A program made the position numbers and the translations under genes. The notes under the pieces are model-generated. The model worked only from the letters and a program-made list of their open reading frames with translations, was not told the origin of the DNA and made no database searches. A DNA stretch of 64,000 nt from Euprymna scolopes (lineage: Eukaryota), in assembly GCA_053919585.1 (NCBI GenBank), contig CM132790.1. One strand, given 5' to 3'. Of this stretch, positions 40,916-62,779 are shown piece after piece. Position 1 is the stretch's first letter. Each line of letters opens with the position of its first letter.

Positions 40916-43060
40916 ATCACCACTTATCAAGACCCAGAGACCACCCGAGGATAGGGGTTAAGAGTGTACAGTAGTCAATCGGGCAATATAGTAATCGTTA
41001 GTAATGGAAATTCGATAAATTTTAAACTTAAATGGAACGACTCATCAAGAACGCTTTTACTTTGGACTTGAATACAATGAGATTGTAGTCAGCCGGAAAG
41101 CAGGAAAACGGAAGACAATTCCACAGGCGTTCACTTCTAAGAAATAAACTTTGTTTATGGAATGCACGTTCAGTTTAAGGCACAGATAAAGAGTGAGGCG
41201 AATTATTCAGAGTGTTTTCAGCTAGGGAAGTGTTTATTGTGGAAGTTTGTACAATGGTGACCATTGATCGTTGCTCTGTCAAGCACTTGCCATGGAAATT
41301 ACGATAAAGCAGAGACAAACTCGCAACATCTCTTCTGTAATATAGAGGTTGCGGGGAAGAGTAAAGGACATCTCCTACGAGGCTACAAAGTCGATTTTGA
41401 ACTGTATCAAGTCAGGAAGAGTCCTTTCTAGCAGAGCCTGCTCAGCTGCGGCAAGAGCACCCTATCCTTGGGCAAACCTGACTCCCATATAGATAGAGAA
41501 TTTCATCAGCAGGAACATATCTACTGGATCGATAGAAGGATCCCACCATTTCCCCAGCAGCCTTAGCAACATATTTGATGTATGTGCTCCATTTCAGATC
41601 AGAAGTAAAAGTGAAGCCTAGAGGCTTGTCAAAACATGACGCATCCCCAAGAGGAGAGCCATTGATTTCAATTGATGTCAGATGGGGACATGACGTTGAT
41701 GATGTAAAGATAGATGCTTTGTTTTAAATGCATTAAAAGAAACCAGCCACTCCTTTCCCCATTGTACACGTACTCAAGATCAGAGGAGAGAGATTCGGAG
41801 GGAACTTGGTCATTTACAGTCTTAGATACGCTACCATAGATCATAGTGTCATCAGCAAAAATGTCTACGAATGATGTAAGGATGTTATTTGGAAGACCGT
41901 TAATGTAGATCAGGAAAAGAGCTGAGGGGCTCCAGCACTAATGTGAGCTTCTGCTTTTGCCTATAAACTACTACTATTATGGACCTGTCAGAGAGAAATG
42001 ATTTAATAATTGAGAAGACATTTCCAGCTTTACCATAACTGGAGATCTTGTAAAGTAACCCTTTATGTCATACTCTATCAAAGGCTTTTGATATGCCAAG
42101 AGCAATTGCCCTAGAAAACTAGCCTCCGTCGAGCTGTTCGCTAATCATATGAGATATAACTGTAAGCACACCTGCTGTAGATCTAACAGAACTGAAACCA
42201 CATTGCGTTTAAATAAGAAGGATAATTTTGCTGAGATGGTCGATTACTTCTCTATTTAACAACATATTCCAACAATATACTCATGACGCACAGAAAATTA
42301 TTGACCTGTACTGAGGGGGAGATGAGTGATCACCTGAAAAAACACTCCATATTGTGAACATTGAACTCTCCACAAACGTGAATGTCAGCTGATGGATATA
42401 AAGATAGGACGTGGTCAATTTTCTCAGATATGCTTTTAAAGATAGTAACTCCGCTGTTGGGGGATGATAGAGAGTAAATATAAAATCAGTAGTATGAGCA
42501 AGTTCAACCCGGATGCTCATATAAGGTATGTTATGATCTTCTCTGGAGATGTCCTTACCACATGGAAATCCATCTTTAATATAGGCACATATTCCATGCC
42601 CATGGCGATCTTGCGGGTCAGGGTTGGAAGTAAAGTTAGAGTATCCTTTACTTACGAACTCCTCCAGGGAAATCGTCTGTCCAATGCCAGTTTCACTTAG
42701 AAATAATATGTCTGGTTTAGTCTCCTGTAATTTGGTTTAAACCTCTTGAAGGTTTGAACGTAGACCCCTGGTGTTGGAGAAGGAGGCATGGTAGTAGTGG
42801 TCTACGTTGGAATTTTGAGATCCGGGTTTAATCGTGTTTTTTTCTTGGAGACTTGTCATGATAGCGTTTTGGAATTTGTGAACTAGGTCGTCAGACTTGC
42901 TTAAGGCAAGACAGAGAGGGAAACTAAGAGAGAGAAAGAAACGAAGAATTTTTTTTTTGTAGCACAGTATAAGGTAAACCCGTAACAATTACCAACTAAT
43001 ATGGCATCGGGAGGAGGCCAAGGCCCGAGTAAAATCGGACTGAAATATCCACTTCAACCA
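40916..43060 (-). mobile_element. CR1/Jockey-type LINE with APE start, RT and 3' end, carrying a large internal deletion
   Basis: Minus: SFSNTRGLRSNLQEV..KPDILFLSETG; DIHVCGEFNVHN; RAIALGISKAFDRV*HKGLLYKISSYG; LFLIYINGLPNNIL..VDIFADDT. Confidence 0.9.
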
Positions 43061-56799: not shown

Positions 56800-58680
56800 C
56801 ACGAACATAAGATTAACCACTAAGGAGGCTGTTCTTCCAGTAGGTGCAAAGTGCTAGCACTGCTGTATTGTTATTTGGTGAATGGATTCTGGGTATTTCA
56901 GTAGTTTCTCGTGGGGCTTCTCGAGATAGTAGGAACACGTTACGGCTTTACCATATCATGTGTTATAAAAAAGATTTCTCCGTTTTTTTCTCGCTCAGTT
57001 CTCTCATATGTCATGTGCTAACCAATTCTATCGACCTGCCCAAATATTTCCAAACATCCACCGAGAAAAAATACAAAAATAAACCCAAACCTCCTTCTCC
57101 AAAAGCAGGGTCTACATTCCAACCTTCCAGTACAATTAGATGATACTTAGCCAAACCTATTATTGGCAAGCGATACTGTCATCGGACCGAGTATTTTTCC
57201 TAGATGAGTTCGTAAAAAAAGTATATTCAAACTTAACACCCAAATCTGATCACCAGGATCGACATGGCATGCAATGTGTGCCTACATTTAAGAGAGCTTT
57301 CCATGGGATACGAATATCATCAGAGAAGATCCTAATTTACGCAATATGTGCTTCTGGGTTCCATTTGTCCACGCCACCGTGTTCATATCTATTCTGTGTC
57401 GTCCCCACAATAGCGGATTTTTAAGAGCATATTTGAGAAAAGTGACCACATCCTTGCTGCTCATCTTTCGGATAACATTCACCTCTGTGGAGACTTTAAT
57501 GTTCAGAATGAGGAATGGTAAACCCACTAGAACAAGACAGATGGTGAGGGAAGGTTTTGGTAGGATTTCACATTGCTTATGAAGTCACACAGATTGTTCA
57601 CGAACCCACCCGTATGCCTGACACTGGCAGTCAGTATACAAGTATTCTAGACCTTTTTCTCACCACTTTCCCAAAGCTATGATCATCTTTCATTCTTTCT
57701 CAAATGGGATATTCCGACCACTTTGTTGTATCAGTTGAGATAAAAATAGAATGTATTGTCCTACAACGTACCTTTCCATTATACAGTATATCTGTACTCT
57801 ATGGCGAAGGAGGATAACTTAATTACATATATATCAGCTTTACATGTTTAAAAAGAATGCCGCATCTCTAGTATCAGACTTGACAGAATAGTTAAGTGTA
57901 GGTAAAAAAACATTTCATACTCTGGAAATACATTCAGAAAAAAACAAACAGCAAGCCGCGATTCTCCCCCAGAATATGCTGCCGCCATTGCCGAAAGAAA
58001 TCACTTTTTCCATTTCTTCCAACGTCATAGGTTTCACCAGACGAAAGCGGCATTCAGGATTGCCAGCAATTACTGTAAAAAGTATAAAGAGAGCAACAGT
58101 GTTGTATGCTGAGTCCCTTAAGTCGAAAGTAGCTGAGCAGCGGCTTAGTTGGCAAAAGTATTGGCAAATAAGAAATAAAGCTCTGAACAAAAGTGTGTGG
58201 TCTATCCCAATCATCATCAAGCGACCCGATGAAATCTGCTCAGCATCAGACTAACCTCAACTATTTGGTAGGAAGTTCGAAGCTAATACTACCCGTTTGC
58301 AATCAAGGCAGTCAACGCGCTCCCGTATTTCCTCCTGCATAAAAAACACGCTATGCAACATACAAATACAAGTGCGTGATGTTGCAACCCATATCCAACA
58401 CATTGCTTTCAGTAAAGCAACTGACAGCATTTCAAATCGACCAGAACAAGCACCTATACTTACAAAGTTGTTTAAGAGTTGTATTTAGGAAAATTTCATT
58501 CGAACACTCTGTAAAACCCTATCAATATGTCCCGTATTTAAGAATTCAGGTGATCGGTTATCTTCCTCTCAGTACAGACTAATACATTTCCTGTGGGTCA
58601 TGAGGAAGTTGCTGGAATCAGTGTTACATAGAAAAGTAGTTAACCAATTCAGAAAAAAGTTATTAAAATAGTTTTTGCTG
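56800..58680 (+). mobile_element. 5' half of CR1/Jockey-type LINE (APE, linker, RT start), truncated at a mariner relic
   Basis: NIHLCGDFNVQNEEW; TQIVHEPTRMPDTGSQYTSILDLFLTT; MGYSDHFVVSV; FKNSGDRLSSSQYRLI. Confidence 0.88.
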
Positions 58681-58689
58681 ATAGATTCA

Positions 58690-59102
58690 TAAAAGCAGTG
58701 ATTGATGGGCAGAAGAATTCAACAAATACAGGCAGCATTAGTCAACAGAAAGAAAGCCGAAGTCTCTTTCACGACAATGCAAGATCGCTCGTTGCTAAAC
58801 CAGTGCTGCAATACTCGATCAAAGTAGATCACGAAAACCTGCCTCATCCGCAACTCTCTCAAAGCCTCTCACCTACCGACCACCAATTTTATGCGAGAGA
58901 AACACTTTAAAAAATCTTAGCGATATTAAAAAACGCCTTTATTGACTTGATTGCCACTAGAAAGTAAGATTTGTATAGTGTTTAGACTTGTGTTGATTCT
59001 GCTGGTGCTAACTGCGATCAATACATTTTTGTTTGAGCCGAAATACGTTCATTCCAATGTTAAAGTTAAAAATCGTAGAACTTTCTTGTTAAACTGTTAA
59101 TA
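58690..59102 (+). mobile_element. Mariner (DD34D) transposase C-terminal relic with right end
   Basis: LFHDNARSLVAKPVLQ...ENLPHPQLSQSLSPTDHQF corresponds to LLHDNARPH...LPHPPYSPDLSPTDYHF. Confidence 0.85.
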
Positions 59103-59604: not shown

Positions 59605-59666
<62 letters not shown>

Positions 59667-59816
59667 ATTTTTGGGGATAAATACTGTACCAAAATTAAAT
59701 TAGATTTATTCCAACAAAATAATTATTACAAACGCTAATTACAGAAAATAATTAGCAAATAGTCAAAAAGAAACAATATGGCATTATTTGTTTTCAAATT
59801 TTATCGCTCGTATCTT

Positions 59817-62757
59817 TGTAACCCATATTCTGATGAAGTTGGCTCGGAGCCCTTGTGCCTGGAAACTTCGGCTCATATCGTCTGTTTCTTCTCAGAGGGT
59901 CGTTGTATTGAATCCTGGATGCTGAAAGCGAATATCGAAGCCGCAGCAGAAAGAAAAACAGACACGTGAAATTCTACTCTATGAGGATTAATTCACGAAA
60001 TTATGTACAAATGTTTTTTTACAAATATCGTTAAGTTCTGAGTAAGTTAGTAAGTTTTTCTAAGTCTCAAATCTCTCTTCACATACAGCGTCATACGGGT
60101 GGGGAAGGGGTCACGTCTTCAGGGAACAGCGGGCTTCGAGTTCGCGCACGCACTCTTGCTGGAAACTGCTTCAAACATCCTTCGAAAATTGACTAATTTC
60201 ATGACACTAGTATTAATAGTAGTGGGCGTGGTAAGGCCAATCAGATCACGCCACGATAGTACGGAAAAAATCAGACTGCGAATGTGCAATTCAATTGAGA
60301 TTCAAGTCAACATTAAAATCCCATGACCTCTTAGGTCCTCACTGTCAGTTCGACATCTAGCTTGTAAGTTCGTCAAGACCAGACAGTATTATGTTAATGT
60401 TCTAAGTTCATGTCATCAATTTTAAATGCAAAATATATCCCTTTGACTTCCAAACAATATCTATTTTGACAATGAAATAAAATATATATTTATATTCTCT
60501 ATTTCCAATCTTGTAGATATATGCCGTTACCTGGGATCGATTAAATCTATCTTAGCATACCTTGATCCCTTATTGTTGCGATTATGTTACATTCACCCCA
60601 ATTAAACGCCGTTGCTTAAACAGAAGCAACGGAGTATAATACCTCAATATACCGCTCCATCCCTTTCAGTTCGCCTTCAGATTTTTTCCACAGGCCCCTC
60701 TCTCCATCATCAAATTACCCGTCAAAAAGATAACATATACACAATCCAATATCCTCCTTTGAATCAGGATGCTCCCTCTTTTTCATTCAAAAGTCCATAA
60801 GAAAGTTATTTCAAAAAGTTAATAAGATCATAAAAATGCAAAACTTCAGAGTTCATTGGCTATAATACAGTCTCTCTTTTTTTGTTCACATGCAAGTTTT
60901 TTTTGTTTGTATATTCTTTATTTCAGTTCACATTAATAATTCAAAGATAAGATAATTACCATTTAAAAATTGTCACTCAATAAAATGCAACAAGTTCATC
61001 AATTAGCTCATAAGAGTTACTTCCCTTGTGTAAAAGTTTTGCCCCCTTTCGTTTTTAATTAAGCTAGGGAATATTTCTCACCTTAAGCAGTCGCAGTTGC
61101 ACCATCACCTTTTATTTCACAGTTTAAATCTCCTTTATAAGCATCTTGTCAGAATGTCTTTCATTGAGGACTTGCCACCTCAATAGACGGTCATTCAAGG
61201 TATCGTTAGGATTTTTCTGTTGACATTTCTCAGCTCAGCGCGCTGCAAGGATTTTAGTAAAACAGAGAGAAAAGAAGAGAAAGAAAAGAAGAGAATCATC
61301 AAGTCGTCCTCAGTTCCTTTGGGTTTCCGTATCAGGAAGGCCTTCAGGTTGCACTTCGTTTTCGTTTACACCAGCAGTTGAATTCTCCAGAATCACAGGC
61401 GGGTTCGAACCAGGGTCTCCCTTGCCACTTGTGCAATCAGCCTCGAGATGCTCACCACCTTGCTTTCTTTCTACATTCGCTCTTTTCATGCACCACTCAG
61501 TTACCAACAACAGCACAATTATCGTTACTAGCGCGCTCAATCCCGCCATGTAACCATTACCTTATTAAGCCAATCCCTAGCTTCTGTAATATCCAGACCG
61601 TTTAATCGGTCCTGCAATTCATTTAAATCTATTTGTCTAACTCCTCTCATAGCTTTTAGTAGTCTAAGTCGTGTATGTAATTGTGGACGATGAATCAGGG
61701 GGTCCCAGTGGTCAGTGAGGTTATTCAGTTCGTAATTCACCCACTCTACTTCAGGTGCTTTTAACAAATACCGTTCTTCAACCTGATAATACACAGATAA
61801 GTCTATGCCTTTTCCACTGGCTTCACAATCCCTGCCCAATTCTACCATAGTTAAAGGTGGTCTCACCTTGATTACCCCAGGAAACGTGTTACCGCATACC
61901 TTGGACAATTCCAACTTCTGTTGCGTGGACACCAACCAGGTGCCTTCAGCTACTCTTATAGCCAGTAGCAAAAGACCATCACTTGCCACTTCAACCTTGC
62001 AGATGATATTTATCACTCTCTACTCCCCCTAAAATAATCCCAACACACAGAAAGAAAAACAGACACGTGAAATTCTACTCTATGTAAGTATGTACAAATG
62101 ATTTTACAAATATCGTTCTGATCTTAGTAAGTTTTTCAAAGTCTCAAATCTCTCTTCACAGACAGCGTCATACGGGTGGAGAAGAGGTCACGTCTTAAGG
62201 GAACGGCTGGCTTAGTTCGAGTTTCGCGGACAAACTCTTGCTGGAAACTGCTTCGAAACTCCTTCGTAAACTGACTAATTTCCTGCGACACTAGTATTAA
62301 TAGTAGTGTTTGTGGTCGGGGTGGAAGTTTCCCACTCCAATCAGATCACGCCACGAAATTACAGAAAAAAAACAGACTGCGTTGTGCAATTCAGCCTGAG
62401 ATCCGAGATTTCAAGTCAACATTACAATCTCATGACCGCTAAGGTCTACACTGTCAGTCTGCCATCTTACTTTTGAGTTCGTCAAGACCAGACTGTGTTA
62501 TGTTGTTGTTTTAAGTTCATGTGTTAAGTTCCTGTTCATGTTGTTGTTTTAAGTTCCTGTCATCAATTGTAAATGCAAAATATATCTTTCTGACTTCCAA
62601 ACAATATTTATTTTGACAATGAAATAAAATATATATTTATATTCACTGTTTTAAATCCTCGGGATATCTGCCGTTACCCGGGATCGATTAAAGCTATCTT
62701 AGCATACCGCCTCCGCTATGATAGGTCAATTCGCTCCCTCGGGTCGATTATGTTACA
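59817..62757 (-). mobile_element. LTR retroelement relic with an env-like gene fragment; 3' LTR 59817-60591, truncated 5' LTR 62048-62757
   Basis: A 650-700 bp direct repeat (59947-60591 versus 62048-62757). The complete LTR is bounded by TGTAAC...GTTACA. PPT-like TGGGGTGAA abuts it on the minus strand. Flanks TCTT and CCTT form a 4-bp TSD with one mismatch. Confidence 0.85.
61310..62047 (-). pseudogene. Envelope/fusion glycoprotein-like C-terminal fragment with transmembrane anchor (frameshifted)
   Basis: CVLGLF.../VINIICKVEV...AIRVAEGTWLVSTQQKLELSKVC...VELGRDCEA..IDLSVYY, then a heptad-like IDLNELQDRLNGL, then TM GLSALVTIIVLLLV with basic tail KRANVERK; located just before the 3' UTR, PPT and LTR. 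Confidence 0.6.
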
Positions 62758-62779
62758 CCTTCATTACACTACGAAGTAT

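Follow-up and report, generated by a model that had tools for sequence, protein, structure and literature searches.

An LTR-env-LTR relic on the minus strand of Euprymna scolopes contig CM132790.1 (59817..62757 of the window, the whole 64,000-nucleotide stretch analyzed here) is best read as a decayed member, shortened by an internal deletion, of a Ty3/Gypsy family with an F-type envelope, likely from a branch without reverse transcriptase (RT) and likely copied in trans. We put the probability of this reading at about 0.7. Sequence comparison supports derivation from an env-carrying Ty3/Gypsy family with an envelope of the baculovirus-F/paramyxovirus-F type, as an earlier note on this DNA had claimed: a sister env was positive for Baculo_F, pol had the gypsy order, and the target-site duplication (TSD) was 4 bp. 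The relic's kind is already published; what is new is the cephalopod host class with its young intact lineages and the split organization described below.

Layout and decay of the relic

The features of the relic, in window coordinates, were as follows.

59813..59816, no strand: left TSD copy, TCTT, by flank reading; a 4-bp TSD is usual in the family
59817..60591, minus strand: complete 3' LTR of the short-U3 subtype, 775 bp, TGTAAC...GTTACA, by LTR comparison
60592..60606, minus strand: degenerate polypurine tract, resembling the 3' LTR contexts of sister copies
60607..61309, minus strand: 3' untranslated region, ~700 bp, ~185 bp shorter than in most sisters, at ~61050
61310..61561, minus strand: C-terminal env frame with transmembrane (TM) helix (~61549-61487), basic stretch, cytoplasmic tail and stop, homologous to the tail ORF of sister copy L041
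61537..62047, minus strand: end of the env ectodomain and membrane-proximal helix, sister residues 386-512, with two stops at its start
62047..62052, no strand: deletion junction between the cut 5' LTR and env, with 2-nt exact microhomology (4/5 alike)
62048..62757, minus strand: 5' LTR without its last ~130 bp, the primer-binding site gone, by LTR comparison
62758..62761, no strand: right TSD copy, CCTT, by flank reading

Most of the layout given in the earlier note was confirmed. Two diverged LTR copies with TGTAAC...GTTACA ends were present at 59817-60591 and 62048-62757, with the 3' LTR boundary now corrected to 60591, and the PPT-like tract corresponded to the degenerate polypurine tract at 60592-60606, similar to that of the sister copies. 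The two LTRs were collinear from 59947/62048 onward, and 62048-62757 lacked the part homologous to 59817-59946. The cut of the 5' LTR at 62048 and its fusion to env were both seen, and neither gag nor pol was found between the two LTRs. The near-perfect 4-bp TSD was upheld in part: TCTT and CCTT agreed at three of four bases and 4 bp is the family rule, but the LTR pair was about twice as diverged as others of its lineage, so that the TSD and a single insertion are likely rather than certain. Two other kinds of repeat were seen nearby, an (AAT)n microsatellite at 59606-59665, ~150 bp left of the relic, and decayed frames at 57288-58700 and 42281-42736 that by eye resembled the LINE endonuclease/RT inserted in L042.

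The relic LTR pair differed by a K2P distance of 0.131 over 616 sites, with 14 gaps and a transversion-rich spectrum (30 transitions, 44 transversions), compared with 0.034-0.074 in seven other LTR pairs of the lineage. The two LTRs did not group as sisters in the LTR tree, and some solo LTRs (p 0.136-0.139) were as close to each of them as its partner was. These distances, the excess of transversions and a chance of ~7% for a 3/4 flank match (estimated from base composition) would fit two separate insertions joined by a larger deletion, with the flanks matching by accident. We consider that origin unlikely, since both LTRs belong to the same minority short-U3 subtype in direct orientation, the flank match has the expected TSD length, and solo LTRs of similar type differ from one another by a median p of 0.136 (28 pairs), so that an old subfamily explains the distance. 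A single insertion, from an old wave of copies as the equal divergence of the pair and the solo LTRs suggests, is therefore preferred.

The junction at 62047/62048 was spanned by no other copy among the best 40 of 2160 candidates. Because the final part of the 5' LTR and the primer site are missing there, the deletion most likely took place after integration. In the proposed sequence of events, the integrated element would have suffered a deletion whose ends, meeting at the short microhomology, fused the 5' LTR with the last part of env. Having lost the primer site, the relic could not have been copied again and would have decayed neutrally.

The ~246 env-like codons between 62047 and 61310 were split over two frames that meet at a break near 61560, and two stops interrupt them near 62030 and 62020. 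This sequence mapped to residues 386-512 of the L041 env plus the TM helix and tail, so that only the C-terminal ~40% of env is retained, including three of the four cysteines invariant across 114 homologues, in good agreement with the ~240 codons of Cys-spaced ectodomain end, TM helix and tail described earlier. Three ORF pieces from the window gave no Pfam match at E<=1 (0/3), and identification of the relic env therefore rests on the sister copies. Genome-wide matches to the relic env piece were 57-79% identical among the best 150 of 1118 candidates, self excluded. The env-region tree was star-like and leaves the parent class of the relic unplaced.

The relic env appears to be in neutral decay. 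Its codon-position ratio was 0.94, with no third-position excess and neither of two pairs significant, and its branch was among the longer ones in the env-region tree. A TM helix and tail are kept and an LTR lies directly upstream, which could suggest a membrane protein gene domesticated by the host; this is highly improbable for a fragment that lacks a signal peptide, contains two stops and a frame break, has a charged residue within its TM helix, sits on one of the longer branches and has codon positions that change at equal rates, and the neutral decay effectively refutes it.

The parent family and its envelope

The genome searched comprised 5.9 Gb in 925 contigs. The relic LTR had 1932 candidates, with long matches 74-86% identical among the best 40 of them; the family numbers hundreds of copies, and the relic is one dead copy among these. 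According to the earlier note, its reading would suffer if the peptide best matched a host or non-viral protein, or if no other locus paired this LTR with pol or env-like sequence. The family env is of the F type, and other loci join the relic's LTR to env and to pol, so neither was the case. Family members had the traits of Ty3/Gypsy LTR elements, namely TG...CA ends, a tRNA primer site (in the sisters), a polypurine tract and a TSD of 4 bp, within the 4-6 bp usual for such elements. The primer-binding site (PBS) of sister copies, deleted in the window copy, matched the His_GUG 12-mer of the PMC13524379 supplement. The pol order PR-RT-RNase H-IN was found in sisters with the same LTR (L054/53, L062/61, L064/63) and in the related lineages C and D, and Integrase_H2C2 was found in the family pol. 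A 4-bp TSD was exact in five solo LTRs (L002, L003 and L009 scored, L005 and L010 by eye); other family loci showed a 3/4, 2/4 or 3-bp match, L039 showed 5, many were without scorable ends, and some were without a TSD. Troyka (PMC12440569) was ruled out as the identity of the family, having a 3-bp TSD, CG ends and no env in the accessible part of that source.

Several further observations were made during the genome search. A pol-less subfamily of ~6.3-6.9 kb was abundant (L032, L033, L038-L040, L044, L046, L048, L049), with env cut at one common point at ~residue 306 and the PBS intact in some copies; an orf0 of ~120 codons in the short pol-less elements had no Pfam match and a weak codon signal of 1.22. 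Copies of gag(a) and env were dense at ~155-206 Mb of the longest contig (G000 C46), some with near-equal scores, and this group possibly represents local amplification or a low-recombination region. Two clusters on G000 C30 (~36.4-36.7 Mb and ~102.8-103.1 Mb) held 53 molluscan haemocyanin units, about seven genes. One of these units scored highest against entry 6r83, which is linked to squid haemocyanin; in comparisons with single units it reached 746 bits with 4yd9_C (squid), 708 with 1js8 (octopus) and 484 with 8tnv (gastropod), which points to a mollusc and probably to a squid or cuttlefish.

The sister copy L041 carried a natural 512-aa env ORF (L041:6373-7908) with a signal peptide, an RPKR site and a fusion peptide. 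The Baculo_F comparison proposed in the earlier note, negative for the window pieces, was positive for this ORF (33.9 bits, the cut-off being 24.1) and for L042 (42.5 bits). Across sister and related ORFs, the F-type features (signal peptide, furin site, fusion peptide, TM and F homology) were all found, and residues R119, G126, F133 and G134 were nearly invariant in the homologue alignment. A model of the L041 env built with an alignment of 114 rows (113 homologues) had a pLDDT of 78, compared with 35 for the single-sequence model. It resembled known F proteins, matching RSV and NDV (Newcastle disease virus) F in PDB at E 5e-7 and baculovirus F in BFVD at 1e-17, with low TM-scores (0.22-0.41). 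An uncharacterized protein of abalone herpesvirus (A0A145VUZ2) ranked eighth among the structural matches (E 4e-14), and an F-like gene common to a mollusc virus and mollusc retroelements is possible on the basis of this model. The sister env gave no match in a word-based protein search and 1243 proteins at E<=0.001 in a HMMER search, in which the best full-length public relative was a 669-aa abalone protein of 33% identity. By analogy with Drosophila errantiviruses, the family env is predicted to be a furin-cleaved class I trimeric fusogen that would pass particles between cells; the infectious potential named in the earlier note is likewise putative.

Envelope and polymerase on separate elements

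Copies of the relic's lineage fell into two classes: (i) elements with gag, protease and env, together with shorter env-bearing derivatives, all lacking RT, RNase H and integrase, and (ii) gag-pol elements whose gag is of another type and which retain only the env tail. The classes shared LTR, 5' leader and 3' region at ~70-90% DNA identity, while their gags were ~30-48% and their proteases 33-42% identical, each about as far from the related lineage B. None of 25 gag(a) copies had a cognate RT/RNase H/integrase downstream and 13 had env; the other 12 did not reach env within 8 kb, most of them being uninformative (truncated or interrupted), and one copy, L167, had only a 22-24% integrase match. 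Among 29 integrase copies, the N-terminal half of env (env-N) was found in none, the 3' half in three (L067, L138 and L145), the tail only in 15, and no env in 11. Cognate pol was likewise found upstream in none of 20 further env-N copies, with unrelated pieces of 29-41% in L137. Taking the best 150 of 35590 and the best 131 of 1435 candidates, env-N matches of at least 60% identity (lineage A) lay within 8 kb downstream of an integrase match in 1 of 62 cases, those of 50-59% in 5 of 19, and those below 50% (lineages C/D) in 33 of 49. An intact gag-pol-env element was thus seen neither in the relic nor in any lineage A copy examined.

The stretch from protease through a spacer to env was collinear among the RT-less copies, and in four of them tested no RT, RNase H or integrase remnants were found in the spacer (0/4), only protease. 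One exception to the split was L031 (G000:C26:43372600-43382599), a rearranged copy that supplied the integrase query and in which integrase lies upstream of env residues 176-512. Its order was gag(a)-type zinc knuckles, C-terminal half of RT/RNase H/integrase, gag(b) end, protease, N-terminal half of RT, and env, and it is possibly a recombinant between the two branches. A permuted gene order as a lineage trait was rejected; the other pol copies were in canonical order, making L031 a one-off rearrangement.

Gag of the RT-less copies had a dS of 0.49 and a dN of 0.09 (10 pairs), with a third-position excess of 1.6-2.9-fold in four of four disjoint gag(a) pairs (p<=0.004), a pattern that shows purifying selection. 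Because these copies share one spacer and nevertheless show such dS and dN values, the selection acted after the loss of RT. Their env showed an overall third-position excess of 1.87, significant in two of four disjoint pairs. The class without the env N-half (12/20 copies) also showed an excess of 1.38, significant in one of six pairs, and some of the env signal may therefore have been carried over by descent; among RT-less copies, env is under weaker selection than gag.

In the model that we favor, the family would have spread as two halves, with an RT-less env branch copied in trans by a pol branch lacking the env ectodomain. RNA of the env branch would have been co-packaged with the RT and integrase made by the pol branch; tRNA-His would have primed its copying, and integration would have duplicated 4 bp of the target. 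We infer from these data a long-lived, RT-less gag-protease-env partner mobilized in trans by an env-less pol branch. The relic likely originated on the env side, since it holds more env than most pol copies; an autonomous parent is also possible, given the shortness of the retained env, the star-like tree and the three pol copies of 29 with the env 3' half.

The same classes could have arisen from an ordinary errantivirus whose complete gag-pol-env masters have since become rare or disappeared; the RT-less and env-less classes would then be independent defective offshoots and the relic a deleted complete copy. Several findings would fit such an origin: the related lineages B, C and D consist of complete gag-pol-env elements; integrase is joined to the env 3' half in L067, L138 and L145; pol pieces are joined to a longer part of env in L031; and the searches scored best candidates only. 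We judge it improbable nonetheless, because no complete copy was present among the 25 gag(a), 29 integrase and 20 further env-N copies, because gags and proteases differ between the classes about as much as from lineage B, and because the common spacer and the gag dS and dN values place selection after RT loss. With the split model retained for the relic's lineage, we suggest tentatively, as a broader and rather doubtful proposition, that cephalopods hosted a two-component enveloped retroelement, in which an RT-less env element and a gag-pol element without env ectodomain complemented each other (entry / replication), with the same genome still home to several enveloped lineages that are independent and spreading at present.

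Young related lineages and comparison with known systems

Three related lineages, B, C and D, had env 55%, 41% and 37% identical to that of L041, all Baculo_F positive, with pol directly upstream of env. Their loci (G000 C5:8092500-8107499, C3:6103100-6118099 and C23:9381500-9396499 in L073-L078, and L079-L086) carried open gag-pol and F-type env frames between LTR pairs 96-100% identical, and intact gag-pol-env on one element was found in lineages D and C. Lineage D showed an open gag-pol frame of 1636-1637 codons in at least five places and a 668-codon env frame in at least seven, with LTR pairs 99.9-100% identical in the three copies examined and LTR ends of TA...CA. Its RT matched Ty3 RT at 4e-74, the next family at 4e-54 and retroviral RT at no better than 2e-33, in a library without BEL, copia or Odin references; its close relatives were only unnamed database proteins. 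Contigs from four polyA runs of one study covered the lineage D env at ~99.8% identity, which, in runs with no DNA control, is not proof of transcription. Lineage C had separate gag and pol frames and LTR pairs with K2P of 0.001-0.016 (four copies), and lineage B had K2P of 0.011-0.013 in the two of four copies with a detected pair.

Cephalopods are a gap in the accessible part of the PMC13524379 survey, and this genome holds at least three related open-frame lineages, in two of which the identity of LTR pairs reaches 99.9-100%. The young lineages allow questions about soma-to-germline transfer and somatic piRNA defense in molluscs to be asked by observation alone. The split between envelope and polymerase, with selection on an RT-less gag, bears on the retention and loss of env and on the origin of segmented viral genomes. 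In a literature search outside subscription journals, Repbase and Dfam, we found no direct report of cephalopod errantiviruses and none of an RT-less F-env gypsy partner in invertebrates.

RT-less LTR partners that borrow RT are known from plants and vertebrates, among them TR-GAG, VL30, ETn and chicken EAV-HP, which retain LTR, PBS and PPT and sometimes gag or env. The RT-less branch described here differs from these in being an F-env Ty3/gypsy element of an invertebrate.

Intact Ty3/gypsy elements with F-type env, termed "ancient errantiviruses", have been described across non-insect metazoans (Chary & Hayashi, eLife 2026, PMC13524379). The accessible tables list such elements in bivalves and gastropods, with 46 mollusc rows that include at least 30 bivalve rows and at least one gastropod row. 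No Cephalopoda element appears in supplement 1, although 15 cephalopod genomes were screened, and three decapodiform rows hold candidate env ORFs only, with no annotated element. The earlier note's claim that such elements are poorly catalogued outside insects was therefore overstated for molluscs at large and, as far as these tables go, holds for cephalopods. The elements studied here resemble ancient errantiviruses in the available description by their Ty3/gypsy pol and by an F-type env that follows pol and has a furin site and a fusion peptide, and resemble several of the bivalve and gastropod elements by the His_GUG primer site and the mollusc host. Unlike them, the relic's lineage splits env and RT/integrase between elements; the survey took complete gag-pol-env elements only, and the word "non-autonomous" is absent from its accessible text. 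Another source, PMC8672886, offered generic classification only in the part available.

The Drosophila insect ERVs gypsy, ZAM and rover carry F-type env, and derived Drosophila lineages live on as retroelements after losing env (Senti et al., EMBO J 2025, PMC12992720). The pol branch of the relic's family lost env in the same manner; the accessible account of the Drosophila elements concerns an insect host and covers the loss of env but no long-lived RT-less gag-protease-env partner of the kind proposed here. In the canid CfERV-Fc1(a), inherited env and pol deletions common to dispersed copies were read as spread by complementation (PMC6407205). That element is a vertebrate gammaretrovirus with a gamma-type env, and its defective copies, as described in the available part of the report, are near-identical derivatives, whereas the two branches in E. 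scolopes carry strongly diverged gags (~30-48% identical), that of the RT-less branch being under selection.
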